From an uncultured Acidobacteriota bacterium (GTDB lineage: Bacteria > Acidobacteriota > JAQAZP01): a stretch of 64,000 nt of DNA. Positions 2,184 through 41,756 of this stretch are shown here, piece by piece. The notes beneath the pieces are model-generated. The model saw nothing but the letters and a program-made list of their open reading frames with translations. It searched no databases and had not been told where the DNA came from. The translations under genes were made by a program, and so were the position numbers. Position 1 is the stretch's first letter. Each line of letters begins with the position of its first letter. The stretch spans positions 2,240,001 to 2,304,000 of the forward strand of contig CAWIIB010000009.1 of NCBI GenBank assembly GCA_963836075.1, in the 5' to 3' direction.

Positions 2184-2624
2184 CCCGACACGCCGAACCC
2201 CGACCAGGAGGATGCCGACGAGGACGGTGTTGGTGATGCCTGTGACACGGCCTCCGCCACCCTGGCCGCCACTCTGCGCTGTCTGCCCGATGCGGGGACC
2301 CTGCCCTTCACCACCACCATGACGGTGGAACTGGCCAACCTGTATGGCGGGCAAACCCGCCGTCTGGCTGGACGTCTCGAACTGGACCTGGCCGGCGGGC
2401 AGCACTACGGCAGCTGGCGGGCCGGCTGGAGCAACATTGGCCCTTCAAACAGCTACCTCACCAGTTGGGGGCAATTCATCCCCGCCCTGGGATCGCTGGT
2501 GGGTGTCAACACCTTCACCCTGCTGGCCGAGGATGTCACACCGGCCCCGTACAACCAGCCGCCCTACCCGGCAGCCGGCGACCAGGCCAGCGACAACTGC
2601 ACGGTGACCGGAATCCTTCCCTGA
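2184..2624 (+). pseudogene. Headless remnant: one thrombospondin type-3 repeat plus the recurrent PYNQPPYP C-terminal domain
   Basis: The frame reads PDTPNPDQEDADEDGVGDACD-TASATLAATLRCLPDAGTLPF...DVTPAPYNQPPYPAAGDQASDNCTVTGILP*. There is no ATG/GTG/TTG between the upstream in-frame stop (2070-2072) and the internal Met at 2319, and no signal peptide. Confidence 0.7.
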
Positions 2625-2635
2625 AGTAGTTTATC

Positions 2636-2665
2636 GACGGCCCGGGGGACGCTCCCCGGGCCGTC
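2636..2665 (+). terminator. GC-rich 12-bp hairpin, terminator-like
   Basis: GACGGCCCGGGG-GACGCT-CCCCGGGCCGTC just after the stop at 2624. It lacks a U-tract. Confidence 0.45.
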
Positions 2666-2693
2666 CGTCCGGCATCCCGCCTGAAATCACTCC

Positions 2694-2722
2694 TTGACGA
2701 GTCTCATTCCTGAACATAAATT
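2694..2722 (+). promoter_or_regulatory. Putative sigma70 promoter for the dodecin gene
   Basis: TTGACG-17 nt-TAAATT. Confidence 0.45.
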
Positions 2723-3096: not shown

Positions 3097-3139
3097 GCGG
3101 AGGCCGCCGCGGGGCGGCCCCCGAGTCGTCCCGACCCGG

Positions 3140-5365
3140 TCAGGGGGCGTGGGCCACCACCACGTTTGTCTTGGTGCACGTACTTCCCGAAGGCGGGTAG
3201 GGCGGCTGGTTGTATGGGGCCGGCGTTACATCCATGACGGACAACATACTGGTGTTGCTGCCGATGACGCTCCCCAAACTCGGGATGGTCACCGGGAACT
3301 GGGTGTAGTAGAAGGAACCCGGGGCTACGTTGGTGTAGCCCGCTCTCCAAGGGTTGAAGAGGGTGCCGTTGGCCAGGGTCAGGGAGATCTGCCCGGCGAT
3401 CCGGCGGGTGAGGGCCGCGCCTCCGCTGAGGGTGTTGGTCATGGTGATCTGGTGCAGCACCTGGAAGGGCACTGTACCCGAGGAGGGCGTGCAGTTATAA
3501 CTGCAGGTAAGGGTCGAGGTGCTCACGGCGCCGAACCCGGTGGCCCGGAGGCCGTAGTTGCCGTAAACCCCGCTGTCGGCGTAGAAGGTGCCTCCGATAT
3601 AGGTCATGGTCCGTCCGTTCCAGGGTGAGCTGGTGTCCGCGCCGATGTTCGAACCGTTGTAAATGATGTAGAGCACCCAGAAGTCGCCCGAAGCGATCTG
3701 GATGTTCAGGCCGGAGACATCCTCGTAGTCCCAGCTATACCCGGTGGCCCCGGTGCTGGTGAGCACCGAGGTGAGAGGGGAGCCCGGCGAACCGCCGCTG
3801 TCGGACCAGATCTGGTACTGACAGTTCCCGGTGTTCTGATGGATGTGAATCCCCTTCAGGTCGAAGGGGTAGGCGCCTGGCGTCATTCGCACCGCCCAGC
3901 CGTAACCCTCGGCCCAGTTCCAGCCGGTCTCGATGGACCCGTCGTCATAGACCAGGTATTCCCACAGGTCGCCCGGCTGGATGTCCATCTGCATGTCGCC
4001 GGCCGAAGCGGCGATATTGGTGATCGAAACCCCGGAGGCGCTGCCGTCATGCCGGTTGCTCGACGGCGTGGTGGAGGCGGTGAACTGGTCCACCGTGCTG
4101 TAGGGATAGATGTCGCCGCTGTCACCGTAGGGCATGAAGGCTGAGCAGTCGAGGTCGAAGTTGCCGTCCGGCTGCTCCAGGGAGACCAGGTAGTGCGAGC
4201 TGGACGTGCAGTACGGCGCGTCCTCGCAGTCATTGCCGGTGGCGACTTCCTCGTCGATGTGCCAGACCAGCACACCGCCGCCCGGAAGGTTGCTGTCGAA
4301 ACCGTAGCTGTTATCGCGGTGGGAGACCAGCAGGTACTCGGAACCCCGCCAGTTCATCCCGATCTTCAGCACCGTGGCGTTGTCCTCGATCCGCGGCAGC
4401 AGCCGGCCGACAGCCGGTGAGGCCACCACCGTGGGGGTGAGCCAGCCCATCTGGATCTTGGACCAGGCGCAGAGGTGAGTGGGCTGTTCGGGATCGGCCA
4501 CCGTGCCGCCCCATCCGCCGTAGCCCATCAGTCCCCAGACACCGATGCCTGAGCTGAGGGTGTCCATCGGCGGCCCGCAGACGAACCCGGTGTCGTTCAG
4601 GTCGGGCAGGCCTAGCATGTGGCCGAACTCGTGGCAGTACACGCCGATCTTGACGTGGGTCAGCGGCGAGGCGTCCTGCAGTTCCGGAACGCAGAGGTAG
4701 GAATCAATGGTCTTGCCGTCGTAGGACCGTGCCGTGCCGCCCATGGCGCTGATCGAGCTGAGGTGGCTGTGGATATCGTTGGTGTCCAGGCTGGTCTCGT
4801 GCCCCTCGCCGCAGTGCACCACGAAGATCGATTCGGCCACCCCGTCGCCGTCGTTGTCGTACTGGGAGAAATCAACCCCGGCGGTCTCGGCGGCATCCAC
4901 CGCCTCCTCAACCAGCGCGGCCGCGTTCCGGGGGTACGCGCCCCAACCCTGTTGCGCATTGCCGTAATAGGCCCGGGTGTTGGCCGCCGTATACCAGCCC
5001 ACGCACAGACCGGCGAGCTGCAGATTGCCGTACGACACCTCGTTGAAATAGTCGTTCATACTGTGTGGCGACCAGGGGCCGAACACCATGTTGTCAAAGG
5101 AGCCGGCCGTGTAGTTGCTGGTGACGTCCGAGAAACGGATACAGATCACCAGGATGTTGTGCGTTGCCCGCCAGCCCCCGTCGGGGATCCGGGCCGGCTT
5201 GTCGATCCAGGGCGGCTTGACCATCAGCTGCCGCCCATCCAGGGTCAGTCCGGGATTGGCCGGATCCAGAGCCCTGGGATCAACCGTGATCGCCTGGGCC
5301 AGAAAGCCGGGGAAGGAAAAGAGCGTGCACAACAAAAGCACCAACAGAAAATACTTGATATTCAT
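3140..5365 (-). CDS. Secreted M6-family (immune inhibitor A-like) metalloprotease with a variant of the recurrent C-terminal domain
   Basis: Signal peptide, SMNDYFNEVSYG, DFSQYDNDGDG and the zinc motif HEFGHMLGLPDL. C-terminus ...DVTPAPYNQPPYPPSGSTCTKTNVVVAHAP. Confidence 0.88.
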   Translation of the reverse strand: MNIKYFLLVLLLCTLFSFPGFLAQAITVDPRALDPANPGLTLDGRQLMVKPPWIDKPARIPDGGWRATHNILVICIRFSDVTSNYTAGSFDNMVFGPWSPHSMNDYFNEVSYGNLQLAGLCVGWYTAANTRAYYGNAQQGWGAYPRNAAALVEEAVDAAETAGVDFSQYDNDGDGVAESIFVVHCGEGHETSLDTNDIHSHLSSISAMGGTARSYDGKTIDSYLCVPELQDASPLTHVKIGVYCHEFGHMLGLPDLNDTGFVCGPPMDTLSSGIGVWGLMGYGGWGGTVADPEQPTHLCAWSKIQMGWLTPTVVASPAVGRLLPRIEDNATVLKIGMNWRGSEYLLVSHRDNSYGFDSNLPGGGVLVWHIDEEVATGNDCEDAPYCTSSSHYLVSLEQPDGNFDLDCSAFMPYGDSGDIYPYSTVDQFTASTTPSSNRHDGSASGVSITNIAASAGDMQMDIQPGDLWEYLVYDDGSIETGWNWAEGYGWAVRMTPGAYPFDLKGIHIHQNTGNCQYQIWSDSGGSPGSPLTSVLTSTGATGYSWDYEDVSGLNIQIASGDFWVLYIIYNGSNIGADTSSPWNGRTMTYIGGTFYADSGVYGNYGLRATGFGAVSTSTLTCSYNCTPSSGTVPFQVLHQITMTNTLSGGAALTRRIAGQISLTLANGTLFNPWRAGYTNVAPGSFYYTQFPVTIPSLGSVIGSNTSMLSVMDVTPAPYNQPPYPPSGSTCTKTNVVVAHAP

Positions 5366-5953: not shown

Positions 5954-7474
5954 ATGAAATATCAATCATATATCATCGTCCTTCTTGTTACCCTGATGTT
6001 TGCCATGGTGGGAAGTTACGCCAGAGCCCAATGGAATCCTCCCGAGCAGATTACCTACAACAACAAAGATGAACTGATCACGAACGGAAGTCTTGCCATC
6101 GATGGCAACGATATCCTTCACATGGCCTGGGCACAGTACGATGGCATGGGAAGCAGCAAGCAGATCGTCTACATGGAGGGCTCCAGCGGAAACTGGGGGG
6201 ATATCGTGGAGATTACCCCCAGCAGCCTTGACTGCACGACTCCGAACCTCGCCGTCCACTCGAGTGGAGACTCCCATCTCGTGTGGCTGCAGGACAACGG
6301 GAGCGCCGGCGAGCTTTTCTATGCCACCAATTCCTCGGGAACCTGGATCACGGAACGGATCACCAACAACACGACAACCGACATCGGTCCGGTTGTTGGT
6401 GTCGACGGCGCAAACAGCCCGCACATTGCCTGGGCTGGATACGATCCGGCCTCCGGCGAAGGCAAGATCTTCTATGGAAAGCGTTCCGGAGGGATCTGGA
6501 ACAAACAGGTCCTCGAGAATTCTTCTCTCGGTGATTACTGGACCGGCGCCTATCCAAAGATCTCGGTCTCCCCTGCGGGGATTGTCCAGATCACCTACCG
6601 CGGGGGCGGATACGGCTACTACCATATCCATCAGGCGACCAATGCGACCGGGGACTGGACGATTCAGATCCTCCATAGCACGAATCTCAATGATTTTTCC
6701 TCTTCCGTGCGCACCGATCCTTTCAACACCTGCTATCTCGCTATGAGCGGAGATTACGGATGGGGAATGCCCGGTGAGGTCTATTACCGAGAAAGCAGCG
6801 ATCAGGGACTCACCTGGTCCGCGGCCGAACTGGCCTCAGGTTATCACGGAACATCGAATCCAGTGCTCGAAGTGGACGGGGAGGGTCACGCCCATATCGC
6901 CTGGGAGGAAGTCAGCGGCAGCATTTACACGGGAACGATCTTTTATTCCACCAATCGAGGCGGCGCCTGGACTACCGAACAGATGACGGGAAGCAGTGAC
7001 TACTTCAGCCCCTCTCTCGTGATGGACGGTTCGGGGAGGGTTCACATGATCTACCTGCAGGAAATCCATCCCCAGCCCTCCGAGATATTCTACCTGACCA
7101 ATGCGACATCGACCGTGACCGCGGACATCACCTGCACACCCTCATCGGGCACCTTGCCGTTCAGCACCTTCATGACGATGACGATGACCAATCTCCACAC
7201 CGATCGGCGCAGGATCGCCGGCCGGCTCGGCATCACCCTGGCCAACGGCACCAGTTACGGCACCTGGCGGGCCGGGTACACCAACATTGGTAGCGGGGAA
7301 AGTTACGTCACCTCCTGGGTCCAGAGCATCCCGGCCCTGGGCTCGCTGGTCGGGGACAACGTCTTCTCGCTCACCGCCGAGGATGTGACCCCGGCGCCGT
7401 ACAACCAGCCGCCCCACCCGCCGGCGGGCGACACGGATACGGCCCAATGCACGGTGACCGGCGTGGCGCCGTAA
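5954..7474 (+). CDS. Secreted beta-propeller-like protein (BNR/Asp-box-like repeats) with the recurrent C-terminal domain
   Basis: Signal peptide ending ARA, repeated 'D..G..HIAW' and 'YxTN..G.W' units, Asp-box SSDQGLTWS. C-terminal DVTPAPYNQPPHPPAGDTDTAQCTVTGVAP. GGAGGAG RBS. Confidence 0.8.
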   Translation: MKYQSYIIVLLVTLMFAMVGSYARAQWNPPEQITYNNKDELITNGSLAIDGNDILHMAWAQYDGMGSSKQIVYMEGSSGNWGDIVEITPSSLDCTTPNLAVHSSGDSHLVWLQDNGSAGELFYATNSSGTWITERITNNTTTDIGPVVGVDGANSPHIAWAGYDPASGEGKIFYGKRSGGIWNKQVLENSSLGDYWTGAYPKISVSPAGIVQITYRGGGYGYYHIHQATNATGDWTIQILHSTNLNDFSSSVRTDPFNTCYLAMSGDYGWGMPGEVYYRESSDQGLTWSAAELASGYHGTSNPVLEVDGEGHAHIAWEEVSGSIYTGTIFYSTNRGGAWTTEQMTGSSDYFSPSLVMDGSGRVHMIYLQEIHPQPSEIFYLTNATSTVTADITCTPSSGTLPFSTFMTMTMTNLHTDRRRIAGRLGITLANGTSYGTWRAGYTNIGSGESYVTSWVQSIPALGSLVGDNVFSLTAEDVTPAPYNQPPHPPAGDTDTAQCTVTGVAP

Positions 7475-8111
7475 GGAATCTCTGACACGGGCGGGGGCTG
7501 TGCCCCCTCCCGCAATCCTCCTTGACTCTCACCGGCAGTGGGGTGCAACAAACACCTTCCGAAAAGTTCTACCTTCTGCTGGGCCCGGGGAGCCAGGCTT
7601 TTGTACAGCGAATCTGAAGGCCGATCTGGTTAACAGACAATATGACTCTTATTGTTGGACGTCTACCATATGGGTAAGCTTACGGTCTGTCTCCAATTTT
7701 TATCACTAACTCTCTGTTCGCGATGCACTGGTTGGATGAAGCACACCCCCCCCCAAAAAAATAAGCATTTATCCGATGGGAGCCATACCTTTATAGTTAT
7801 GGATTAATGTTGTACGAAGCAGGTCTAAAGTCTTACAGTTACTCTGCAAGCACGATCCCATCAAATTATTGTTTTACAGTTGCCTCAACATTATCGAGCC
7901 ACAAGGCTCTATATTTCACCGATCATGGCGTGGCTCCATCCCTGATGAGTCATTCCGTCAGCTTGTTCATGGAAATCTGAATCACACTCCACTCAGCGGT
8001 GGAAAACCCCAGGAGAGCGTGATAACAGCAGTGCTCAATTGAATCGAACAGTCGAAGTCAAATATGTTCAGACGCATTAGCAGGAATGAAGTACCAAAGG
8101 AGAAACGTACG

Positions 8112-9809
8112 ATGACCAATAAGATAATATGGCAGGCCCTCGCTCTTGGACTCATGGCACTGTGGTTGGCGGTACCGGCGGCCCAGGCCCAGGTCGAGGA
8201 GGCCTGGGTGTCTCAATACATCGGCCCCCCTCCCCTCGAGGGCTGGCACCCTTCGGACTATGTAACAGATCTGGCGGTGCGTGACGGCTACGTCTATGTC
8301 ACCGGATACGAATCTCGGTTTACCGCCTACTGGGCCACCGTGAAGTACGACTATACCGGGCAGGAGGTATGGGTCCAGAGAGTTGTGGACGGTCAGTCAC
8401 AGACCGCCGAGGGGATCGCGGTTGACGCGGCCGGCAACGTTTATGTGACCGGCTACCAAAAACAAGTTGGTGCCGGCGGTGATGCGTTGACGGTGAAGTA
8501 CAGCCCGGAGGGCGTGATCCTGTGGGAGAAGCTCTACGTGAGCCCTGGCGGTAACAACCGACCAAATGACATAGCGATCGATGCATCCGGGAACATCTAC
8601 GTCTCCGGTGCCTCGTGGGTCACCGAGCAAGAGGAGTTTGACATGCTCCTGCTCAAGTACGACTCCGACGGCGAATTGCTATGGGATCGCACGTTCGACG
8701 ATGGGGAAGAAAATTGGGACTCCGGTCTCGCATTAGCCATCGATCCGGATGGCAACACAATTGTGGCAGGTTTCACCGAACCCGAAGCCATGCTTGTGAA
8801 GTACAGCCCCACCGGCGACCTGCTCTGGTATGACAAGCACGTGAGCTATGCGCCCTGGGACCAATGGGCACGAGTCATAACTGACTCGACGGGCAACATC
8901 TACGTTCTAGGGGAAATATCTCTCCCGGGGACGCCAAAGTACCTGTGGACGGCCAAGTACGATCCCGACGGCAACATTCTGTGGGAACAGCCCTACACCG
9001 GCACCGCGGACGAATCCTGTTACGATGGCAACCTGGCCCTTATGCCCGACGGCGGCGTGGTGGTCACTGGCCAGAGTTGGGAGGTGTCCGGCATCAGCAT
9101 CGTCACGATTCGTTATGATAAGGAAGGCACTGAGCTCTGGCGGCGGCTCGAAAACGCCGGGTACGCGCATACCAGCGGCGACGATGTGGCCGTCGACGCG
9201 GAAGGCCGTATCTACGTCACGGGCTACGGCTATAACTATAGCTACTGGGAGGACAACATTACTCTGGGTTACTCACCCGACGGCGACCTGCTCTGGACAC
9301 AGATCTACGCCAATCCCCAGCCCGATGGATCGGACTATCCGCAGGCGATCGCGGTGGATGAAGACGCGAATGTGTTCGTCGCGGCGCACTCCTGGAGTAG
9401 CGAAACCAGCAACGACTACACCACGATCATGTACCGGCAGGGTGCTCTGTCTGCCGAGTTGACCTGCCTTCCCTCATCCGGCACGCTCCCGTTCTCCACG
9501 GTAATGACCGCAACGCTGAGCAATCTATACACTGAACAGAGCCGCCGCATCTCCGGCCACATCGACGTCACTTTGGCCAGCGCTCAGCTATTCACCAATT
9601 GGCGGGCTGGATTTACCAATATTGCTGGTGGCGCAAGTTACGTCACGACCTGGAATCAGACCATCCCGGCCTATGGGAGTGTGGTCGGTGAAAACGTCTT
9701 CCAGCTCCTGGCTCAGGACGTCACACCGCCACCATACAACCAACCGCCCTACCCACCGGCAGGGGACACGGCCACGGCCACCTGCACTGTGACGGGGATA
9801 GCACCCTGA
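8112..9809 (+). CDS. Secreted SBBP-repeat beta-propeller protein with the recurrent C-terminal domain
   Basis: AAGGAG RBS before ATG 8112, signal peptide ending AQA, repeats 'IAVDxxGNVYVTG...TVKY(D/S)xxG..LW', then the CTD. Confidence 0.85.
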   Translation: MTNKIIWQALALGLMALWLAVPAAQAQVEEAWVSQYIGPPPLEGWHPSDYVTDLAVRDGYVYVTGYESRFTAYWATVKYDYTGQEVWVQRVVDGQSQTAEGIAVDAAGNVYVTGYQKQVGAGGDALTVKYSPEGVILWEKLYVSPGGNNRPNDIAIDASGNIYVSGASWVTEQEEFDMLLLKYDSDGELLWDRTFDDGEENWDSGLALAIDPDGNTIVAGFTEPEAMLVKYSPTGDLLWYDKHVSYAPWDQWARVITDSTGNIYVLGEISLPGTPKYLWTAKYDPDGNILWEQPYTGTADESCYDGNLALMPDGGVVVTGQSWEVSGISIVTIRYDKEGTELWRRLENAGYAHTSGDDVAVDAEGRIYVTGYGYNYSYWEDNITLGYSPDGDLLWTQIYANPQPDGSDYPQAIAVDEDANVFVAAHSWSSETSNDYTTIMYRQGALSAELTCLPSSGTLPFSTVMTATLSNLYTEQSRRISGHIDVTLASAQLFTNWRAGFTNIAGGASYVTTWNQTIPAYGSVVGENVFQLLAQDVTPPPYNQPPYPPAGDTATATCTVTGIAP

Positions 9810-9835: not shown

Positions 9836-9846
9836 AATGTGCGATG

Positions 9847-9920: not shown

Positions 9921-11304
9921 TTGAACTGGAGGGATATCGTGAGAGTTTTCTTATTCTGCGTTGTGTTGGTTTTGACACCCGCCGTGATGTGCCTTGCCCA
10001 AACTCCAGTCATGCAGTTGGTTCCCGCCGGGGAGTACCGAGATGGGGGACCACCTGGGAACGGGATATTACCAGGAACTCCCTGTTCATGCGGTGTACAT
10101 AGACGCGTTCTACATGGACACATTCGAGGTGGCCAACGAGGGGTACGGCACCTACTTGAACTCGGCCTACAGCCAGGGATTGATCGAGGTATCCGGGGGC
10201 GTGGTGTACAAGAACAACGACACCGAAGCGTACTGCTCAACAACCTCTGCACCTCCGGGCGTTCCTTTCTTTGGCGAGTCCAGCCGTATTTCCTGGAACG
10301 GAAGCACCTTTGCGGCCACCGCGGGCAAGAAGGAGCACCCCATGGTGCTGGTGAGCTGGTGGGGGGCTGCGGCGTACGCGAATTGGCGAAGCGAGCAGGA
10401 AGGACTGACGCCCTGTTACAACCTGGCAACCTGGGAGTGCGACTTCGGTGCGGACGGATACCGGCTGCCCACGGAAGCGGAGTGGGAGAAGGCGTCCCGG
10501 GGCGGTGAGCACACACCTTATTACGATTATCCCTGGGGCAATAGCATTGATGGGTCAAAGGCGAACTACTATGATTCCGGTGATCCGTATGAGACGGGTG
10601 CCTTCCCTCACACAACACCGCAGGGGTATTACGACGGCAACCAGATCCCTTCCGGCGTAGATATGGCCAACGGGTACGGCCTGTACGACATGTCGGGAAG
10701 CGTATGGGAGTGGTGCAATGATTGGTACGATGATCAATATTACCAGGCCTGCGTGGACTACGGGATATACGACAACCCGACAGGACCTCCGTATAGCCCT
10801 TATGGCTATCGTGTGTATCGCGGCGGTTCGTGGTTCAGCTATGGGATCAACCTGCGTTGCTCGGTCCGCGAAAGAAACTACCCCATCATTCTGCCCGAAA
10901 TTGTCGGGTTCCGACTGGTCCGGGGTGCATCAAACAGTACCGTAGCTGCTGACCTGACCTGCGATCCCTCATCCGGCACGCTCCCGTTCTCCACGGTAAT
11001 GACGACAACGCTGAGCAATCTATACACTGAACAGAGCCGCCGCATCTCCGGCCACATCGACGTCACTTTGGCCAACGACCAGTTCATCGCCAACTGGCGT
11101 GCCGGTTACACCAACGTGGCCGCAGGCGGAAGTTACGTCACGACCTGGAATCAGACCATCCCGGCCTATGGGAGTGTGGTCGGTGAAAACGTCTTCCAGC
11201 TCCTGGCCCAGGACGTCACACCGCCACCATTCAACCAACCGCCCTACCCACCGGCGGGGGCCACGGCCACGGCCACCTGCACCGTGACGGGGATAGCACC
11301 CTGA
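9921..11304 (+). CDS. Secreted formylglycine-generating-enzyme (FGE/SUMF1-like) domain protein with the recurrent CTD; +1 frameshift at ~10038
   Basis: The signal peptide and MQLVPAGEY are in the 9921 frame. EMGD...YRLPTEAEWEKASRGG...NGYGLYDMSGSVWEWC...RGGSW...GFRLV and the CTD are in the 9994 frame. One extra C at TAC-C-GAG separates them (sequencing error or pseudogene). Confidence 0.8.
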
Positions 11305-22416: not shown

Positions 22417-25400
22417 ATGGACATCCGCGGTACGTCTCTTCTTTGCTTCGCACTATTGATATCTGCTTCGTTCCCGCCACAACGGCCGGGCCACTGCTGT
22501 TCAACACGAGGGTCGAATTCCCGGTGGGTATCTTTCCTTCCTGCGTTGCCCTGGCCGACCTGGATGGTGATGGCCGCCAGGACCTGGCCGTGCCGAACCT
22601 GGTCAGCGACGACGTCTCGGTGCTGCTGGGCAACGGTGACGGCACCTTTCAGGAGGCGGTGAACTACGGGGTGGATGATTCCCCTCTTGCGGTGGCCATC
22701 GGTGACCTGGACGCGGACAGCCATCCGGACCTGGCGGTGGTGAACTATACCGACGGACTGGTCTCAGTGCTGCTGGGCCGGGGCGACGGCACTTTCGAGA
22801 ACGCGGTGAACTACGAGAGCGCCCACTCGGCCAACTCGGTGGCCATCGGCGATCTGGACGGGGATGGCCATCCGGACCTGGCGGTGGCCAACGGCGGTTT
22901 CCAGGCGGTTGCGGTTCTACTGGGCAATGGCGACGGCACCTTTCAGAGCAGGGTGAACTACAGCGCCGGTCTGGGGCCGGCATCGGTGGTCATCGGTGAC
23001 CTGGACAACGACGGTATCCCGGACCTGGCGGCGGCGAATTCCAGCCTCGACTCGGTTGCGGTGCTGCTGGGCAACGGGGACGGCACCTTCCAGACCCGTG
23101 TCCTCCACGAGACCGGGGACAGCCCGGTGGCGGTGGCCATCGTCGACCTGGAGAACGACAACTTCAAAGATCTGGTGACGGCGAGTAGAATCGGTAACAA
23201 CATCTCGGTGCTGGCGGGCAACGGGGACGGCACCTTCCAGGCTGCGGTGAACTACCCGGCCGGGGACGATCCCGAAGCGCTTGCCGTCGGTGACGTGAAT
23301 GACGACGGCCAGGCGGATGTGGTGGTTGCCAATCTGTCCAGCTCTGACGTCTCCATACTGCAGGGCAACGGGGATGGCACATTGCAGGTTGCCCGGCAAT
23401 TCCCCATCGGCCGGGCCCCCGTTTCGGTGGCCATCGGCGACCTGGACGGCGACGGAAACCAGGACCTGACCGCGGCGACTTCCAGCTACAACTATGTCAC
23501 GGTTCTGCGGGGATACGGGGACGGCACCTTTGCCACCGCAGCTGAATACGGTGTCGGCGGTCTCCCTCAATCAGTGGCCGCGGGCGAGCTGGATGGTGAC
23601 GGGCGTGTGGACCTGGTGGTGGCCAACCCCGACGAGGGCACCGTCTCGGTGCTTGCCGGCCAGGGGAACGGCAGTTTCGGCTCCGCGGTACAGCACGGTG
23701 CCGGTGCCGGGGCCTGGTCGGTGGCCATCGTCGACCTCGATGGCAACGGCAACCCGGACCTGGTCACGGCGAACTACAACGGTGACGACGTCTCGGTGTT
23801 GATGAACACGGGTGGCGGCGCCTTCGCCGCACCCGTGAATTACGGGGCCGGCAGCGGCCCATTCTCGGTGGCCGGCGATGACTTTGACAATGATGGCCAC
23901 CAGGACCTGGTGGTGGCGAATTACTACGACAACAACGTGTCGGTGTTGCTGGGCAACGGTGACGGCTCCCTTCAGACGGCAAGTGACTTCGCGGTTCAGG
24001 CTTTTCCCACGGCGGTGGTCACCGGAGACCTGAATAAAGACGGTGACCCGGACCTGGCCGTGGCCAACACGCTCGGCGACTCTGTTTCGGTACTTCTGGG
24101 TCTCGGGGACGGCGCCTTCCAGGCGGCCGTAAACTACGGTGCAGGGAACAACCCGTATTCGCTGGCCCTCAATGACCTCGATGGCGATGGCGCCCTGGAC
24201 CTGGCCGTGGCCAATAACGGCAGCGATTCCGTATCGCTGTTGCTGGGCCAGGGCGACGGCACCTTGCAGTCCGCGGTGTACTATGACACCGGCGTCGGGC
24301 CTGTCTCGGTGGCCATGGCCGACCTGGACGGCGACGGCCGGCTGGATCTGGCCGTGGCCAACCTCGACAGCGACAATGTGTCGGTGTTCCCGGGCCTGGG
24401 GGACGGCACTCTGGGGACCGCGGTGCTCTATGGTTGCGGTGAAGATCCCATCTCCATGGTGTCGGGCAACCTGAACGGTGATGGCTATCCGGACCTGGTC
24501 ACGGCGGACCAGGACCAGGAGACGGTAACGGTGCTGATCAACGGCACCAGTATCTCGTCCCTTTCATCGCTCTATGTCGGTCCGGGCCCGGCCTACGACA
24601 ACAGCCCCCTGGTCCGGCTGTTCCCGCCGTTGCAGGACGCAGCGGCCCAGTCCGAGTTCCCGGCATACGGCGCAACTCATTACGGCGTCAAGGTGAACAG
24701 CGGTGACCCGGACGGTGACGGAGCGGACGAGATCCTCACTGGTGCTGGTCCGGGTGACATCTACGGGCCCCACGTCCGGGGGTTCGAGGTGGACGGCACG
24801 CCCGTTCCCGGGCTCAATTTCCTGGCCTACGGCACGAACAAATACGGCGTGAATGTCGCCGCCGGCGACTTCGACGGCGACGGTTTCGACGAGATCATCA
24901 CCGGTGCCGGTCCGGGTGCGGTGTTCGGGCCTCACGTGCGCGGCTGGACTTACAACGGCGGGTCAGGGGTCACTTCATTGCCCGGGGTGAGCTACTTTGC
25001 CTACGGCACGCCAAAGTGGGGAGTGAACGTGGCCGGCGGTGATATCGATGGCGACGGCTTTGACGAGATCGTCACCGGCGCCGGTCCGGGTGCGGTGTAC
25101 GGCCCCCATGTGCGCGGCTGGAACGTGGACGGCGGTGCGGCGGCAGCCATACCAGCGGTGAGCTACTTCGCTTACGGCACACTGAAGTTCGGGGTCAATG
25201 TCAGCTGCGGCGATGTGGATGGCGACGGTATTGACGAGATCGTCACCGGCGCCGGTCCGGGTGCGGTGTTCGGGCCCCACGTGCGCGGCTGGAACTATGA
25301 CGGGTCCGCGGTCACTTCGCTGCCCGGCTTCAGTTTCTTTGCCTGGCAGACCGAACCGCTCCGCTTCGGGGTCAATGTCTTTGCCGGAACCGACCTGGAT

Positions 25401-25565
25401 GCCGACGGCCGTGACGATCTGCTGGTGGGCCGCGGGCCGGATCCCACCGCGGACAGTGAGGTGAAAGCGTTCTCCTACAACGGGTCGGCCGTGAGCCAGC
25501 TCTTTTCGCTGGACGCATTTCCGGGCCTGACCCACGGGGCCAACGTGGCGGCGGGAAAGAACTAA
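22417..25565 (+). CDS. Large secreted FG-GAP/VCBS-repeat protein with a C-terminal GPHVRGW-type FG-GAP module; apparent 1-nt frameshift in the signal peptide
   Basis: AAGGAG RBS and ATG 22417 encode MDIRGTSLLCFALLIS, while the long frame continues FVPATTA|GPLLF. There are ~14 'GDLDGDGxxDLAVAN...VSVLLGNGDGTFQ' repeats, then repeats 'GDxDGDGxDEIITGAGPG..GPHVRGW'. Confidence 0.85.
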
Positions 25566-25569
25566 TACG

Positions 25570-33500: not shown

Positions 33501-34079
33501 ATCTATGACGCCCGGGACGATTTCTTCAACCCCACCCGCGGTCTGTTCGTCCGCGGCGAACTGGAATCGGCCCTCAGGGTGCTCGGTTCTCAGACGGAGT
33601 TCCTCCGTTCTTTGTTCAGCGGCAGTTACTATCAGCCGCTCTCCAACCGTACGGTCTGGATCTCCACCGCGCGGCTGGGGCTGATGGGCTGGCCGGGCTC
33701 CGACCAGTACATCCCGATCTCTCAACGCTTTTTCGCCGGCGGTTCGAACACCGTGCGCGGGTTCCCCCTGGACCGGCTGGGGCCGCAGGATCCCAAGTCC
33801 GGCCTGCCCCTGGGCGGCGAGGCGCTGGTGGTGCTGAACCAGGAACTGCGCTTTCCACTGTACGGCGACCTGGGGGCTTCGGTGTTTGTCGATCTGGGCA
33901 ACGTGTTTCTCACCGTGAGTGACATGTTCGACGACTTCAAACTCCGCCAAACCGCCGGCGTGGGCTTGCACTACCACACGCCGGTGGGCCCGGTGCGCAT
34001 GGAATACGGTTGGAAACTGGACCGCGAGGAGGGGGAGGGAATAGGCGAATTCTATCTGAGCATCGGCAACTCTTTCTAG
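27534..34079 (+). CDS. TamB/AsmA-like (DUF490) protein fused to POTRA domains and an Omp85 (TamA/BamA) beta-barrel
   Basis: 2181-aa single ORF: N-terminal TM, long beta-rich TamB body, DUF490-like end (ARITVGKDLSEDLFFTYS...GADFQYR), POTRAs (GNVLTDNRVI, QRNLYRTGLF) and barrel (RFFAGGSNTVRGF, TPVGPVRMEYG, SIGNSF). Confidence 0.85.
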   Translation: MTSEDKPLAHKKPSTEAKKSRKILSAFRFSRIGLAARIAGAVIILFSILLLYLVFGSPSSRITSSLLTGLVEKYFAPGSGFQALNLDFYSGELLISGIQLEIPPDPEALPTAEGPAPGCSLTLESLRFAFGPSFHRPFTFGAHQLDLDGLDVDMEHHSLMAFVNRFRKRDKKPPRDFSISLPGASIRRAVFRFGRHEIPLDIEVRNIKVSLAPTDSREVVEGVVQCGPGMVDANGYRFPVDSLVAAAGLDLSGVRVRHLELSSPVAQLTGDGVIGFRRYGEVPRRLAIQGVCRLERVARYTRLPFGLTGSAALDLELIGKWGEPDETGLWTLSGTVSGNRAWIDDLPLDDYTILAEVGSAGLTVHRFDTGLFDGRCRGAGSLFPLNTRGVLEATLELDKVSLPQVQPWIQLGEEWPQGLVSGQVAGTMPVKNWTDLVAAGDLVVDSGQRKGTLQAMGPPSLRGRVAFHAFQGTLQFQESSLVVGQTAVQFSGPLSLEGGGSRVNIRLVADDLRRSKNTLERIFGPRYPTLRDGEGRTPLSMAGVLEFDATLVREEGGPFRFEGWMRGDSLQLAGFRLGQTDGRFHLDPERFELRDLVLGGDGVNGTVDYFGWRLGRRGAGDEEPGAETEKERDLVLQVDDRMAGPAVYGILGPLDPLIGIRCDLTGIPLATVSNLLPMPPVSGDPADVQLALDRSDPFSPLAGWGLVESGSWDLDQWRFGTTRAGVEVDGDGVRWHGEIGGNGRMSISGWIEPGFHDVHFRCNGSAVEFAGACTVLVDEETGEPYFRAPLDFTGHGSYDGGRFSLRGGFYFPWLASGANLLGPGKASLAMNGDIWRLELEPETGSGRIRGMLFADGHNWPLWLAGELSSLRVRQCEEDATVPQFIPGQWAELTGRVWLRGPGAVARRMVLGGLVEHCLVSTSEYYRLESRGAFPILMDQGVRSLKVPRASFQGPGGSRISAGGRLAFEGVPTPSDMLLLGSFDLDGLGISRETYQLSGSGMAELQLGGYYPHLTQTGRVDLTGGKLTLPQIHFACTGIEAAIALEPDRLELLSMSGRIGGGPVSGSGTLHFGRDYSAESFRFEAVGRDMVLAYPEKVSTLFDADLVLEGDRQGHTLSGRGLIRRTVYSGSVFIEEEEPLLVDDPVSSGEEEIDWLGRLALDLTLEAPDNLFIRSEEGTVQFAGSLEVGQTFAEPRITGTVTSVPGGRFLFRDIEYDVEEARVDFIDPTGVQPVLYLKASTTVDTYLITLVADGPFEDLSFEVTSVPRLNDRDIISLLAFGRLSSEMPGIEGAALAGQEVTSYFTGGFTGELQSVFKEAFGLTRFEIQPMFLEGTTDPTARITVGKDLSEDLFFTYSTSLTNVEETLVLLRYRFDERMALLGSREQDGSYGADFQYRTTMSFAQGKDKRLWDSLLGRRSRTSPDQGTAADGSPRPRVGRISFAEPEQLPVKQEKLAGKLKVRSGDLVEAKRLVDDQERLTKFLLKQGHLRCRVKLDRLPRETARADEPLTDLVWTVNAGPRYGVKYRGGRVPLGMKGKIRKLWSGEAFFDDNIRRAREMLAQHFRHKGFPDAEVTAVQEPAEDRTDLVFVVREGPAARIASIEVSGNRLFNTSQALALLEGGPEDVQLKSGVLYVEDQVLPALGRLRTAYRARGYNDCRITHFTGAPLAGSADGREKTVPLQIMISEGPQDVVRLVRFSGLNGLNEIDLRHRFLYQEGVPYDAFRMKEAQEDLVRFIDQEGFIEAQLEIEVTHLDGGEDGPLPHLIEVGVEEGRRHLVDDWRFSGNVLTDNRVISQEMVILPGQPLSRFGMLQSQRNLYRTGLFDQVVVRYEPLPGPADGPLNVRLLVEVEERDNLQLTGAVGYDTEEKLRGYLQFNNLNFMGARRILGLQLRGSSLRQRLQVTGTETRFLNRRNMEATVVAFAAQEQEVSYDISRLSASFQVDWKYSPHWRFLYGYNFEANRLDEVRVLEDVIEDREETYRISRLRLSPIYDARDDFFNPTRGLFVRGELESALRVLGSQTEFLRSLFSGSYYQPLSNRTVWISTARLGLMGWPGSDQYIPISQRFFAGGSNTVRGFPLDRLGPQDPKSGLPLGGEALVVLNQELRFPLYGDLGASVFVDLGNVFLTVSDMFDDFKLRQTAGVGLHYHTPVGPVRMEYGWKLDREEGEGIGEFYLSIGNSF

Positions 34080-35027: not shown

Positions 35028-35154
35028 GAAGTGGTGATCGTCCTCTCATCCCGCCCCTCCTCCCCGCCGATAAGTACCTCATGTTGGTTGAACGGCGGCC
35101 AGATCCGGCTTGCGGGGGTTTGTGTGCGCCGTGCTCCGACACCTGGAGGGGTCA

Positions 35155-37815
35155 ATGAGAGATACCAAACATTTCCGATTCCACTGGTCTGTTGCAGGCC
35201 TGTTGTTCTCCCTGCTTTCGCTGACCGCGACGGCCGGGGGGCCGGCTGGTATGGTGGTTGGTGAGAACCGGGTTCCGCCGGGCCTGCTCTGGGTGGATAC
35301 GAATCACGAGGATGCAGCGGTCAACCGCAAGCAGGTGGCGATCACTGCCGACGGGGAGTTCGTGCTCTCCGGATGGTGGATCAACAACGAGCGGGTGCAA
35401 CTTTACCGGCGGGGCGAGGCCAGAAGCCTGGAGTGGCGCGCGGATATCGCGGGCACCGATTGGTTTCTCCCCCTGGAGAGCGACCGCGAAGGGCGGAGCC
35501 TGGTCTGCGCCACCCGGGGCAACGACATGGAGCTGGAATCTTTGCTCTACCTGTGGGACAAATCCTCCCCGGTTCCGGTGCACCAGATGATGGCACCTCC
35601 GGACCACCTCTGGGTCGATGCGGAAACCTGTGACGACGGAAGATTCTTTTTTGGCCTGGCCCAGGGGCCGTCACCGAACTATGCCGGGCGGGTGATCTGT
35701 TACGACCGGCAGACCGGGATACTGCTCTGGCATCACCAGTTGGGCAACCAGGCCCTGGGCCTGGACTGCTCGGCGGACGGGAGACGGCTGGCCGCTTCCA
35801 GCCGCGGGGAAACCGTGGTGCTGGATACGGCCACCGGGTTTCCCTTGGATCGAGTGGAGCACGAGGGCGGCAGCCAGTCCCTGCCGGCCCTCTCCGGCGA
35901 CGGGATGCTTCTCGCGGTGGGCTCAACCAGGGGGCAGCTGTCGTTGTTCGCCTGGGACGGGGCCGACTACGTCGAACGGTGGTGCTATACCTTTCCGGTG
36001 CTGGACGACGAGTCCTTTGTCAGCTGTGTGGACGTCTCCGATGACGGCAGTACGGTGATTGCCGGTACGCTCGATTTCCCTGCGGTCAACACGTACGGCG
36101 GCAGCTGCCGGATCTTCGACAGCTCGTCGCCGTTGCCCCTGTTCACTGAAACCGGTTTCGGGGACCAGGTCAACGATGTGGAACTGACCGACGACGGATC
36201 GAGGGCCGCGGCGGTCTCCCACGGACAACAGGGGAGCGGAGACGGTTTTCTGCTGGCGGTATTCGACAGGGACAGCGGCCGTACCGTCTTCTCGGTTCCG
36301 GACAACACATTCCAGGGTATCGGATCGACATTCAGTGTCGCCCTCTCTGCCGATGGGGCATATGCGGCATTCGGGGGCAGGGCCGGCCACGCTCGCGAAG
36401 AAGGTTCCGGTGGATACATGGCCATGGCCCGGCTTCCCATGTCCTTCCTCTCCATCCTTGACAGCGGGGGCGGGGAAACGGATGAGATCCTGGTGGGGCG
36501 GGAGATGGGCCTCCTGCTGGAAGACCGTAACGCCGGCACCGACCCGGGGGGGGCCATGGAGACCGTCCAGGTGCGGGTGGTCAACATGACCAGTGCCGAC
36601 GAAGAGATCGCCGCCCTGACTGAAACCGCACCGGGCAGCGGCCACTTCAATGGCACCCTGCCCACACTGTTCTCGCCATCATGCCCGCCGGTGGCCGGGG
36701 ACGGTCGTCTGGATTGCGGCAGCGGAGACCTGGTGCGTGCGGTCTATATCGACGCCGGCGATCCGGAAGACCAGGCGCGGGTTGAAGCACACACCCGCTG
36801 GCCTCTGCAGATCGTCGGTGCTCCGGGGCCGGGGCAAGGCAACCCGGCCCGCGGCCGGATCGTCGATCCCTTTGGCCAGGCTGATCTGGCCGGCGATATC
36901 GAGCCTTATGGGGCAGCGGTGGGCTACGGTCTGCGTCTGGCCCTGGGGGACATCGACGGCGACGGCATCGATGAAATCGTCTGTGGTCCGGGCCCCGGCC
37001 TGGAATACGGCCCGCTGGTCCGGGCCTTCGAGGCCGACGGCAGCCTGGTGACCCGCGTGTCGTTCATGGCGTACGGCACATGGCGCTTCGGGGTCAATGT
37101 GGCCTGTGGCGACGTGGACGGCGACGGCATCGACGAGATCATCACCGGCGCCGGGCCGGGTGAAGTGTTTGGTCCCCACGTCCGCGGCTGGGACGCTGAC
37201 GGCGCTGCGGTGACTCCGATGGACGGGATCAGTTTCCTGGCCTACGGGACAAACCGTTACGGGGTCAACGTGGCCTGCGGTGATGTGGATGGCGACGGCA
37301 TGGACGAGATCATCACCGGCGCCGGGCCGGGCGGGGTGTTCGGTCCCCACGTCCGTGGCTGGAACCACGACGGTGGGACCACCACCTCCCCGATCCCCGG
37401 GTTCAGTTTCCTGGCTTACGGGGCCAACCGCTTCGGCGTCAACGTGGCCTGCGGCGACCTGCAGGGGGACGGCGTGGCCGAAGTCGTCACCGGCCCCGGT
37501 CCGGGTGACATGTTCCCGGCCCATGTCCGGGCCTGGCGCCTGGATGGCTCGGCCGTCTCTCCGGTGGCCGGGGTCAGCTTTCTGGCTTATGACGGTGAGT
37601 ATCGTTACGGCGCCGCGGTGGCCGCCGGCGACCTCGACCTCGACGGGACCGACGAGATGATCACCGCGCCGGGAGCGGACCCCCGGGCCCCCTGCCGGGT
37701 GAGGGGGTTCAAGATGACCGGCACCGGCGTGCAGCAGCTGGACTATTGTGATTTCCTGGCTTTTGACGGCCTGGTGAGCCACGGCGGAAACGTCGCCGCC
37801 GGCAGTTTGCGGTGA
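35155..37815 (+). CDS. Secreted WD40/PQQ-like beta-propeller protein with a C-terminal GPHVRGW-type FG-GAP module
   Basis: GGAGG RBS, signal peptide, 'SxDG' propeller repeats, a middle 'LTETAPGSGHFNG...GDLVRAVYID' domain, and a C-terminal module homologous to 24560-25565. Confidence 0.8.
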   Translation: MRDTKHFRFHWSVAGLLFSLLSLTATAGGPAGMVVGENRVPPGLLWVDTNHEDAAVNRKQVAITADGEFVLSGWWINNERVQLYRRGEARSLEWRADIAGTDWFLPLESDREGRSLVCATRGNDMELESLLYLWDKSSPVPVHQMMAPPDHLWVDAETCDDGRFFFGLAQGPSPNYAGRVICYDRQTGILLWHHQLGNQALGLDCSADGRRLAASSRGETVVLDTATGFPLDRVEHEGGSQSLPALSGDGMLLAVGSTRGQLSLFAWDGADYVERWCYTFPVLDDESFVSCVDVSDDGSTVIAGTLDFPAVNTYGGSCRIFDSSSPLPLFTETGFGDQVNDVELTDDGSRAAAVSHGQQGSGDGFLLAVFDRDSGRTVFSVPDNTFQGIGSTFSVALSADGAYAAFGGRAGHAREEGSGGYMAMARLPMSFLSILDSGGGETDEILVGREMGLLLEDRNAGTDPGGAMETVQVRVVNMTSADEEIAALTETAPGSGHFNGTLPTLFSPSCPPVAGDGRLDCGSGDLVRAVYIDAGDPEDQARVEAHTRWPLQIVGAPGPGQGNPARGRIVDPFGQADLAGDIEPYGAAVGYGLRLALGDIDGDGIDEIVCGPGPGLEYGPLVRAFEADGSLVTRVSFMAYGTWRFGVNVACGDVDGDGIDEIITGAGPGEVFGPHVRGWDADGAAVTPMDGISFLAYGTNRYGVNVACGDVDGDGMDEIITGAGPGGVFGPHVRGWNHDGGTTTSPIPGFSFLAYGANRFGVNVACGDLQGDGVAEVVTGPGPGDMFPAHVRAWRLDGSAVSPVAGVSFLAYDGEYRYGAAVAAGDLDLDGTDEMITAPGADPRAPCRVRGFKMTGTGVQQLDYCDFLAFDGLVSHGGNVAAGSLR

Positions 37816-37820
37816 CTCTG

Positions 37821-39101: not shown

Positions 39102-40006
39102 CACGCGGCCTCCCTTCCCACGATATTGACGAAGATGTTGTGCAGGGTCGGCTCCATCACCTGGAAGCGCTTGAGCCGGCAGCCGTCGGACACCGCCCGT
39201 TCCAGCAGTTGCCGGGGTTCCACGCCCTCGGCCAGGGTGACCTCGGCGTAGTTGCCGTAGCGGTCGATGCTGCCCACCAGGGCCTTGTCGTCGAGGAAGG
39301 CCGCCTGGCCCTCGAACTCCAGGGCGATGGTGTTCGTGCCGTAGCTGTGCTTCACATCGCTGAGCCGGCCGTCCAGCACCTTCCTGCCCTTGTTGATCAG
39401 GCAGATGTATTCGCAGAGTTTCTCCACCTGCTCCATGATGTGGGTGGAGAAGACAATGGTTTTGCCCTGCTGGTGCAGTTCGAGAATGATCTCCTTCAAC
39501 ATGTCGACGTTCACCGGGTCGAGGCCGGAGAAGGGCTCGTCAAGGATCAGCAGCTCCGGGTCGTGGAGCATGGCCGAAACAAACTGCACTTTCTGCTGCA
39601 TCCCCTTGGACAGTTCCTCCACCTTCTTCTCCTTCCAGTCGGTCAGTCCCACCCGGGCCAGCCACTGGTCGGTGCGCTCCTTTGCCGTCCGCGCCGCCAC
39701 GCCCTTGATCGATGCCAGGTAGTGCAGCACTTCGTTCACCTTCATCTTGGCGTAGAGCCCGCGCTCCTCCGGCAGGTAGCCGATCCGTTCCTTGAGCTGC
39801 TCGTTCATCCCCTCTCCCAGCACCTCGATCCGGCCCGTGTCGGGAATGAGGATGTTCATGATCATGCGGATGGAGGTGGTCTTGCCTGCCCCGTTGGGCC
39901 CCAGCAGACCGAAAATGCTTCCCCGGGGGACGGTCAGGTCGAGGCTGTCCACCGCCCGGTGCCCCTCGTAGGCCTTGGTTATCCTGTCGATTTTGATTGC
40001 GTCCAT
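39101..40006 (-). CDS. ABC transporter ATP-binding protein (NatA/YhaQ-like)
   Basis: GPNGAGKTT, GYLPEERGLY, LSKGMQQK and ILDEPFSGLDP. Start taken at MDAIK. Confidence 0.92.
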   Translation of the reverse strand: MDAIKIDRITKAYEGHRAVDSLDLTVPRGSIFGLLGPNGAGKTTSIRMIMNILIPDTGRIEVLGEGMNEQLKERIGYLPEERGLYAKMKVNEVLHYLASIKGVAARTAKERTDQWLARVGLTDWKEKKVEELSKGMQQKVQFVSAMLHDPELLILDEPFSGLDPVNVDMLKEIILELHQQGKTIVFSTHIMEQVEKLCEYICLINKGRKVLDGRLSDVKHSYGTNTIALEFEGQAAFLDDKALVGSIDRYGNYAEVTLAEGVEPRQLLERAVSDGCRLKRFQVMEPTLHNIFVNIVGREAA

Positions 40007-40217
40007 GTTGCTCCACCTGTGGCGTTGCGGTTGTGTCCCGGCGGAACCGGTCCCCGGGCGCTTCCTGCATATACGCAATAGCGCCCCCGAGGTTTCAGCT
40101 GCGGGGAGCGGTGCATGGTTGACAGTTCCCCCCTGCGGCACCTATCTTTATTCCGTGGAGAGTTTTCCGCCGCGGGGAGTGTTCCCGCCCGCTGAAACCC
40201 GTTTCAGGAGTTTTACG

Positions 40218-41756
40218 ATGTCTGCTGGATGTTCACCGTCTGGTCCCATCCTCACCGTTTTTTCCCTGCTGGTGCTGCTGACCCTTCCTGCCACGCCGGT
40301 GGCGGCACAGAACGGGGTGCTGCTGGACCAGCAGCTGGACGGGGACGGCAAGGGCTACTCGGTGATTCACGTCTGGGGTACGCACCACGAGATGGGCTAT
40401 GCTCACGCCTCGCTGCTGGCCGACGAGATCGTCGACGCGGTGGACTACTTCCGCATGATGCTGGACACCGATTACGCGGACCTGCGGGTCACCATGGCCG
40501 CTTCGGACTGGCAGCCGGCGGAGATGGTGGACGAGCTGCAGGGGATGATGGACGCGCTGGCGCTTACGCACCCGGCGGCAAACATCGACCTGCTCGACCT
40601 GAAGATCCTGAACAGCTTCAGCGACTGGGGCTGGGGGTGGGCCTGCCGCTCCCACGCCTGCTGGGGCAGCATGGTCCAGCCGGGGGTGGAGATGCTGGCC
40701 ACCCGCCAGTTGGGCATCGGCACCCCGTTCCCCTCGCTGAACCACCACGTGATCTGTGCCTGGGAACCCGACGACGGTTCACCCTGGTGGATCAACGTGG
40801 CCTGGGCCGGGTATGTGACGGTGATCACCGCGGTCAACGAGTACGGCTCGCAGCTTTCGCTCCACGACTACCTGGTCAGCGGCACCCTGTCGTCCAGCCC
40901 CATGCCGCGCTCGGTGGCGGCCCGGTTCCTGCTCACCCACCCCGACGGCCCGGACATCGAGAACCACCTGGACGGGGGGTTTGCCGAGCTCACCCTCCGC
41001 GATGCCTGGAACAGCAGTTTCATCAATCATTTTTCCCCCGGGGGGCACGGGGGGGTGGTCACCTGCACCACCGACCTCGGCTACTACGAGATGCGCGAGC
41101 CGCAGGCGGTCTACTTCAACGGCGAGGTGCTGGTGACCAGCAACGAGTGGACCGACGGCACTTTCACCCCCGACGGCGCCTGGTTCATGGAAACCTATTA
41201 CAACCTGGGGGGGCCCAAGACGCTGGCCGATCACTGGGACTCCATGGAGAACCTGGGCAACGGGCTGCACCTGGTGAGCACCGAAGTCCGCGGCGGGCGG
41301 GACCTGACCCTCTGGTTCCAGGGGCGTCTCGACCCGGGCCTCACCGGGCGGCTGGAGTGGGAGTGGGACGACCTCTTTGTCCGTGACCCGGCCACCATCG
41401 CGGTGGACCTGGACTGCCAGCCGCTGCAGGGCACCCTGCCCTTCACCCTCCGTTTCGACGTGGACCTGCGCAACCCCACGCCCTGGTTCCGCCGGCTCTC
41501 CGGCCGGATGGACGTGGACCTGGCCCAGGGCGGCTATTTCACCAACTGGCGGCGCGGCTATACCAGCACGTCGCCCTTCGAGATCGTCTCCATCCTCTGG
41601 ACCCAGTACATCCCCGCCCTGCCCGCGGTGATCGGCGGCAGCACCTTCAGCCTCCACGGCACCGACACCACTCCGGCGCCGTACAACCAGCCGCCCTACC
41701 CGGCGGCCGGCGGCACCGCCTCGGACCAGTGCACGGTTACCGGGGTGGCGCCCTGA
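40218..41756 (+). CDS. Secreted C45-family-like Ntn hydrolase/peptidase with the recurrent C-terminal domain
   Basis: AGGAG RBS, signal peptide, VIHVWGTHHEMGYAH, putative nucleophile in ACRSHACWG, and TAVNEYG. C-terminal DTTPAPYNQPPYPAAGGTASDQCTVTGVAP. Confidence 0.72.
   Translation: MSAGCSPSGPILTVFSLLVLLTLPATPVAAQNGVLLDQQLDGDGKGYSVIHVWGTHHEMGYAHASLLADEIVDAVDYFRMMLDTDYADLRVTMAASDWQPAEMVDELQGMMDALALTHPAANIDLLDLKILNSFSDWGWGWACRSHACWGSMVQPGVEMLATRQLGIGTPFPSLNHHVICAWEPDDGSPWWINVAWAGYVTVITAVNEYGSQLSLHDYLVSGTLSSSPMPRSVAARFLLTHPDGPDIENHLDGGFAELTLRDAWNSSFINHFSPGGHGGVVTCTTDLGYYEMREPQAVYFNGEVLVTSNEWTDGTFTPDGAWFMETYYNLGGPKTLADHWDSMENLGNGLHLVSTEVRGGRDLTLWFQGRLDPGLTGRLEWEWDDLFVRDPATIAVDLDCQPLQGTLPFTLRFDVDLRNPTPWFRRLSGRMDVDLAQGGYFTNWRRGYTSTSPFEIVSILWTQYIPALPAVIGGSTFSLHGTDTTPAPYNQPPYPAAGGTASDQCTVTGVAP

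Follow-up and report, generated by a model that had tools for sequence, protein, structure and literature searches.

The 64,000-nucleotide window analysed here (positions 2,240,001 to 2,304,000 of contig CAWIIB010000009.1, from an uncultured Acidobacteriota bacterium) contains six copies of a C-terminal domain of 122 residues, which recurs throughout the 6.23-Mb genome containing the window (G000) and which we call the Ig tail after its predicted immunoglobulin-like (Ig) fold. The domain family is real, uncatalogued and restricted to one GTDB class; it behaves like terminal tags already known and is a member of none of the kinds tested. In the genome it is one of three interchangeable tails. 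Summed over the readings weighed below, the domain very probably serves as a tag, for addressing or for anchoring. Our preferred reading, to which we assign a probability of roughly 0.45, is a non-covalent surface or matrix docking tag on enzymes exported by Sec and type II secretion (T2SS).

A six-frame motif search of the window found exactly six copies, at 2256-2624 (+), 3140-3520 (-), 7103-7474 (+), 9444-9809 (+), 10939-11304 (+) and 41391-41756 (+). Each is the last part of an open reading frame (ORF) ending in Pro-stop, and all six copies reported in the first-pass annotation of this DNA are real. The other window copies share 48-66% identity with the copy at 7103. The cargo preceding the tail is unrelated from gene to gene, as had been claimed, and is assigned by Pfam and NCBIfam as an M6 metalloprotease of 741 aa at 3140..5365 (-) (PF05547, 3e-22; TIGR03296, 3e-51), a BNR/Asp-box propeller protein of 506 aa at 5954..7474 (+) (BNR_4, 2.6e-6), an SBBP beta-propeller protein at 8064..9809 (+) (PF06739, 1e-23), whose tail copy was used for the fold model, an FGE-sulfatase-domain protein at 9921..11304 (+) (PF03781, 3e-47) and, weakly, a C45-like hydrolase starting with the ATG at 40218, at 40218..41756 (+) (NF040521, 3.6e-10, below cut-off). 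The tail region is left unassigned by both libraries in all window carriers. A seventh carrier begins in the window (63637..64000, +), with a divergent tail beyond its end (G000 C9:2303637-2305070).

Six carrier genes, five of them with signal peptides, had been proposed. The copy at 2256..2624 (+) is an orphan tail domain: it lacks start codon and signal peptide, has just a short TSP3-like fragment in front of it and lies directly behind a peroxiredoxin gene. Inspection showed the signal peptide in frame with the tail in the M6, BNR, SBBP and C45 carriers; in the FGE carrier the signal peptide starting at 9921 lies in a different frame from the tail in this assembly. One base at 10037 is absent in the contigs of three of four public runs and the gene is continuous in those relatives, so the broken frame reflects either a fault of the assembly or a lesion of the strain. 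Where the active-site residue of the peroxiredoxin (1460-2161, +) would be encoded, near 1709, the gene has a TGA in frame, probably a selenocysteine codon.

In the genome, 196 ORFs hold the 197 full-length copies detected with a hidden Markov model (HMM), alongside 32 partial copies, many of them split across frames. Gene counts are approximate, since numerous carrier genes of this assembly are broken by frameshifts of a single base. In total, 191 of the 197 copies end within 3 aa of the stop codon, two within 20 aa and four further in, and none is N-terminal; random placement would give 2.9 terminal copies, and the same HMM gives no match in reversed ORFs. Among these last four, one is genuinely internal, two seem to be frameshifted and one belongs to a protein with a terminal copy as well. 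A single protein of the genome has two copies. The terminal residue is Pro in 163 of the 191 terminal copies. The earlier description of the domain as always single, terminal and Pro-ending is accurate for the six window copies and has exceptions both genome-wide and among outside homologues. About 4% of genes carry the tail, and their chemistries are unrelated.

The genome copies share a mean pairwise identity of 46%, some being recent and near-identical, and have near-invariant Arg, Asp, Asn and Pro positions. The median ratio of nonsynonymous to synonymous substitution rates (dN/dS) is 0.33 over 514 close pairs; purifying selection thus acts on the protein sequence of the domain. We considered a mobile DNA element or cassette and rejected it because of this dN/dS and because the copies have nothing in common 3' of the stop codon, where the best 10-mer is found in 5 of about 191.

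Signal peptides were called with a crude heuristic rule rather than SignalP. The rule is positive for 124 of the 196 carriers and for 113 of the 146 long carriers, versus 293 of 1118 background genes. Of the 72 rule-negative carriers, 32 have an untailed ORF on the same strand just upstream, as expected from frameshifts. None of the 196 carriers has an additional membrane helix or a Tat motif, and two have lipobox-like matches. A genome-wide HMM check had been proposed in the first-pass annotation, and its outcome (197 copies, nearly all terminal, mostly on signal-peptide proteins) agrees with the interpretation given there; neither a match to a characterised family nor frequent internal or cytoplasmic copies, which would have counted against it, were found.

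We submitted 47 of the 196 carriers to Pfam, of which 22 matched at E<=1e-9, to S8, C25, FG-GAP, LVIVD, sortilin-like, ASST, PETase-like and other families. Cargo of the kind found in type IX secretion (T9SS) secretomes is present, with 25 C25 matches, S8, M6 and multiheme proteins. One intact C25-family protein (G000 C1:1027241-1029985, -) bears neither this tail nor the propeller tail described below and ends at its catalytic domain. Two proteins are free of cargo and consist of a signal peptide and one divergent domain copy (C1:1239290-1239847, L032, and C9:1846342-1846878, L035). Their orthologs in a second genome of the class (G001) are 58% and 72% identical, and none was found in the third (G002).

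Clustering the C-termini of all 4,733 genes called with our own codon-model caller gave three tails in the genome: the Ig tail on 196 genes, an FG-GAP propeller ('F tail') on 134-140 and a dockerin-like tail on eight genes for exported proteins, for example C1:2156597-2158108. No gene carries both the Ig and the propeller tail, where about 38 would be expected if the two were independent in the pool of 727 exported proteins. The largest cargo family has 68 members, of which 30 bear the Ig tail, 30 the propeller, three the dockerin and five none, and one cargo pair that is 94.7% identical over 301 residues bears different tails. Together, the Ig and propeller tails account for about 7% of genes and 10% of genome bases and thus would define most of the surface enzyme set of this lineage.

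Two window genes end in the propeller tail, with the tail at 24549..25565 (+) in gene 22524-25565 and at 36799..37815 (+) in gene 35110-37815. Its model is an FG-GAP propeller (pLDDT 91), judged from its matches to be six-bladed, and it contains a GPHVRGW repeat. The top Foldseek match is the UmbA4 lectin (9oee, E 2e-8). At E<=1e-40 the propeller tail was found in only the same 3 of 201 genomes as the Ig tail, with 10 candidates scored per genome.

The Ig tail is present in all three genomes of the GTDB class (G000, G001 and G002) and was found in none of 198 sampled genomes of other Acidobacteriota, in which up to 22 candidates were scored per genome. The proposal that it is lineage-specific is borne out by this comparison. 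Scanning 185,579 species genomes for the motif yielded 118 confirmed stretches; the 74 loci listed from the best 80 are all from two metagenome-assembled genomes, one of them labelled as an Acidobacteriota bacterium. HMMER searches of 1.84 billion representatives gave 515 matches. Among the best 150 of these the last copy is terminal in 146, nine have two copies and in three a single copy is trailed by another 190-330 residues. As the class has three genomes, phylogenetic profiling is nearly powerless.

None of 109 copies consistently matches a Pfam or NCBIfam family and no family is matched by more than one member, in line with the earlier statement that it was not recognised as a named family. 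A sequence search of the PDB gave a chance match only (E 0.65). One Atlas search returned CARDB-like features at 0.91 and a second one unnamed clusters at 0.90-0.91. A literature search, which included the literal motif, found no description of the domain; subscription journals and bioRxiv supplements lay outside this search, so a domain list in a supplement could be missed.

An AlphaFold2 model built from 109 sequences predicts a seven-stranded sandwich of the Ig/fibronectin type III (FnIII) type (pLDDT 98, pTM 0.88), in agreement with the beta-sandwich that had been proposed. In the model the PYNQPPYP motif is a long loop preceding the last strand. The best structural neighbour is RbmA (4be5) with Z 12.2, a root-mean-square deviation of 2.5, 104 aligned residues and 12% identity (Foldseek TM 0.73), followed by the Ig domain of AlkC (Z 11.1) and by Ig domains of a dextranase, a transglutaminase and CARDB (Z 10-11). 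CARDB and PKD folds score Z 10.2 and 9.5, and 77 chains reach Z>=8, many of them near-equal. As judged from the predicted structure, the fold is common and the lead of RbmA is slight. CARDB and PKD Ig profiles match none of the 109 copies. A homodimer prediction scored 0.01, which gives no verdict and is not used as evidence.

Closure of the sandwich by a disulfide had also been proposed. The cysteines of the first and last strand covary (both present in 131 of the 197 copies, neither in 29, and only one or the other in 27 and 10; Fisher p 2e-11, uncorrected for kinship), and the pair is missing in 66 copies, so that closure is at most optional. A divergent subfamily (C9:2390485, C9:2392203, C1:997671, C1:1708554, C1:1909419 and C9:1048599) lacks the YNQPPY loop and has extra cysteines; its sequence suggests that its partner may differ.

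So common a fold raises the question of whether domain shuffling has spread an accessory module here, an Ig stalk or one for substrate binding, without a common address function. The 77 structural neighbours, the CARDB-like Atlas features, the moderate dN/dS and the recent near-identical copies agree with such a module. It should, however, stack with the propeller tail, which it never does, and it would have to account for a domain on about 4% of genes, with unrelated chemistries and near-invariant Arg, Asp, Asn and Pro. We therefore consider it quite unlikely.

To see what occupies the same slot in other lineages, we took the cargo module directly before the tail and read the sequence that follows it in 79 metagenome loci (from the best 80 of 323). 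By our own sorting, with duplicates kept, this domain follows in 6 loci, a propeller in 2, a dockerin-like tail in 11, a membrane helix plus basic residues in 7, a T9SS tail in 3, three unnamed families in 14, 5 and 12, and other sequence or none in 19. When 33 of the tails were checked against the libraries, L153 proved to have PEP-CTERM, L193, L197 and L210 to have T9SS/FlgD tails, and L157, L164, L208 and G000's own L015 (PF00404) to have dockerin above cut-off. The Ig domain that precedes the T9SS tail in two of these loci (L197:2029-2745 and L210:1704-2408) has a sub-cut-off match to Pfam RbmA-like_FnIII.

The first unnamed tail family comprises L184, L189, L191, L192, L199, L201, L211-L214, L216, L218, L223 and L224, the second L181, L188, L198, L200 and L226, and the third L159, L167, L173, L180, L182, L190, L205, L206, L215 and L219-L221. 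No meaningful Pfam or NCBIfam match was found in the representatives scanned, and families 1 and 2 are alike (hhalign 72%). Homology of our domain to the unnamed Ig-like tails was not detected: in hhalign, the Ig domain of L197/L210 reached a probability of 4% at best (E 0.01) and two other families stayed below 1%, with 0.6-3% for column-shuffled controls and target alignments of 2-12 rows.

The first-pass annotation had suggested a candidate sorting or anchoring system. The terminal position, the exported cargo and the slot shared with known tails agree with a sorting or anchoring role, and a whole system with a reader or machinery of its own is putative. One form of it is an outer-membrane secretion signal similar to the T9SS C-terminal domain (CTD), for which the T2SS or an unknown translocon would be the reader and which may be removed after export. 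The strict terminal position, the conserved terminal Pro, the Ig fold shared with T9SS tails, the cargo typical of T9SS secretomes and the T9SS tails following the same cargo module in 3 of 79 loci all point towards it. Haft and Varghese (PMC3237569), moreover, take replacement by known signals as the criterion for a sorting signal. On the other side are the three unrelated folds in one slot and the tandem, internal and cargo-free copies. Searches of the genome for the type A CTD, SprA and PorP gave no match, where the positive controls were silent too and GldK-N were not searched genome-wide. No SprA-sized barrel is found among the called genes, and the only PorV-like match (48 bits versus a cut-off of 90) reads like a FadL transporter. 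Altogether we regard a secretion signal as rather unlikely, although it ranks second after docking.

The machinery that is present includes type IV pilus genes, an operon read as T2SS and two TamB-Omp85-like fusions. The latter are proteins of about 2,150 aa which end in an Omp85 barrel behind a putative TamB part, encoded at 27657-34079 (+) of the window and at C9:1011957-1018487. Two tandem, near-identical genes for a type IV pilin or pseudopilin lie in the window (15596-16030 and 16426-16860, +), with two further copies at C5:7030 and C9:2569194. The T2SS secretin (C1:2169991-2172390, L124) has a terminal cohesin domain, through which the eight dockerin-like tails might conceivably be linked to secretion. 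There are four cohesin matches in total, none of them a multi-cohesin scaffold. Exosortase (PF09721) was found in none of the three class genomes, with the control positive in 1 of 14; sortase and rhombosortase were not searched. Codon bias is too weak to point to an S-layer or scaffold gene.

A genome-wide search for FlgD_ig, with the control positive in 6 of 14, found one sub-cut-off protein per class genome, which we consider a speculative candidate partner of the tail (G000 C9:643176-644891, -, L268; orthologs L269 and L270). It is exported, single-copy and 571 aa long, with a signal peptide, a FlgD-type Ig domain (PDB profile E 4e-6; PF13860 matched by 46 of 49 members at E<=1) and an unassigned domain with Cys452, His506 and Asp519. 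All 49 aligned homologs have these three residues, which may, from their order in the sequence, form a triad. The protein is present in all three class genomes (78-82% identity) and in none of 248 other Acidobacteriota, and is followed in all three genomes by a conserved exported gene of 283 aa. With its homologs it makes up a putative, uncharacterised family of enzymes in itself.

The tail could on this basis serve a dedicated enzyme, a cysteine transpeptidase or a cross-linker, as substrate or docking site. The single-copy and class-restricted occurrence, the invariant Cys/His/Asp, the real FlgD match and the conserved next gene speak for this candidate. However, its class-restricted profile proves little, because the class has three genomes and any class-specific gene would show such a profile. 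Many of its 201 homologs are named as Planctomycetota, where the tail was not found, no catalytic family is matched by sequence, and tail genes flank the candidate in G000 and G001 and not in G002. Such an enzymatic role is very improbable.

In the docking reading that we prefer, Sec would carry the cargo over the inner membrane, as the signal peptides suggest, and the cargo would fold in the periplasm, where the optional cysteine pair can close. The folded cargo would then leave through the T2SS of the class, since this is the only outer-membrane exit for folded proteins that was found. The terminal Ig/FnIII domain would tether the enzyme to a surface or matrix polymer specific to the lineage, for which a glycan is the likeliest candidate, followed by a scaffold protein, with the conserved Arg/Trp/Asn positions and the Pro-rich YNQPPY loop as the probable binding surface. 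The FG-GAP propeller and the dockerin, the latter an established docking module, would be other anchors fitting this slot. Docking is favoured over a single secretion signal because two further unrelated tails occupy the slot, and three anchors are more economical than one receptor reading three folds. The tandem, internal and cargo-free copies fit a binding module as well.

Glycan-binding proteins are among the top structural neighbours of both main tails, which on the predicted folds is a lead only. FnIII-2 of RbmA binds exopolysaccharide (PMC5605196), the six-bladed UmbA4 propeller binds teichuronic acid (PMC13274773), and an RbmA-like fold has been proposed as a pilus anchor in the candidate phyla radiation (bioRxiv 10.64898/2026.03.03.709456), so that this fold serves attachment in other ways too.

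Several observations weigh against docking. The Z score of RbmA (12.2) is close to the 11.1 and 10.8 of unrelated Ig domains, its VIA match spans FnIII-1 and not FnIII-2, which binds the Vibrio polysaccharide, and Pfam RbmA-like_FnIII (PF22021) matches none of the 109 copies at E<=1. The same model did match L197 (3e-5) and L210 (2e-4); its search of the three class genomes found nothing, where the positive control was silent too. VIA-align gives propellers of Kelch and nidogen the top ranks for the propeller tail; Bap1 is missing from the fold matches listed, and may nevertheless be related. With 191 of 197 copies strictly terminal and none N-terminal, the placement suits a signal and exceeds that of most binding modules. 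The domain is acidic (mean net charge -3.3), unlike what would be expected for binding an acidic polymer. Lastly, the T2SS is common to other Acidobacteriota without the domain: all three class genomes and both of the two other Acidobacteriota tested have the GspD secretin.

Signal peptides prove export over the inner membrane only, and one cargo-free protein (L035) has a lipobox-like cysteine. The cargo might accordingly stay in the periplasm, with the tail binding peptidoglycan or a periplasmic scaffold. The cargo is, however, of the surface type (proteases and adhesin-like propellers), and its homologs elsewhere bear T9SS or dockerin tails, which makes retention in the periplasm highly improbable. 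The most far-reaching reading is that the class runs an undescribed, T9SS-independent surface display which takes up about 7% of genes, uses two exclusive tags and has a dedicated reader, possibly the FlgD-Ig Cys/His/Asp protein, the unnamed tails of other lineages being parallel versions. We put this forward as a doubtful proposal.

New here are the exclusivity of the Ig tail and its swapping with a propeller tail, the cross-lineage catalogue of the slot and the candidate reader. A lineage without detectable T9SS has T9SS-type cargo in which the tag is replaced, and the swap test revealed at least three more unnamed tail families in other uncultured bacteria. A neglected question thereby becomes testable, namely by what means diderms other than Bacteroidota direct folded proteins in their hundreds to the cell surface. 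The domain, small and folding by itself in the model, lends itself to expression for binding assays with no need to culture the host.

Among the known systems, PEP-CTERM, LPXTG and GlyGly-CTERM are likewise paralogous C-terminal suffixes on unrelated exported proteins, and PEP-CTERM replaces the domain on L153. In contrast to their motif-helix-basic architecture, the domain is essentially all-beta in the model and has no membrane-spanning stretch.

RbmA FnIII (PF22021) of Vibrio cholerae, the best structural neighbour, shares the seven-stranded FnIII-type sandwich and only this. RbmA is a stand-alone tandem-FnIII dimer, whereas the domain is a tail on about 200 proteins; the two are 12% identical, and the profile gives no match. 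Both an FnIII domain and an FG-GAP propeller serve in Vibrio to attach proteins to the polysaccharide of the matrix (PMC5605196, PMC10102183, PMC3161981). The propeller of Bap1/RbmC differs from the propeller tail in that Bap1 has eight blades, versus six in our model.

The T9SS type A CTD (TIGR04183, PF18962) and FlgD_ig (PF13860) are also many-to-one terminal Ig-like domains on signal-peptide proteins without a membrane helix, follow the same cargo classes and occupy the same slot after the shared module (L193, L197 and L210). They are about 72-79 residues long, versus 122 here, where tandem, internal and cargo-free copies are tolerated. None of the 109 copies matched these three models (TIGR04183 and PF18962 at E<=1), and the same libraries caught the T9SS tails on L193, L197 and L210.

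Dockerin (PF00404, NF041540) is different in structure, as the Ig tail is an unrelated beta-sandwich with no calcium-loop repeats, no PF00404 match and no known cognate partner. In what we propose for its function the two are alike, both being non-covalent terminal docking modules on enzymes, and they are interchangeable on one cargo family in the genome.

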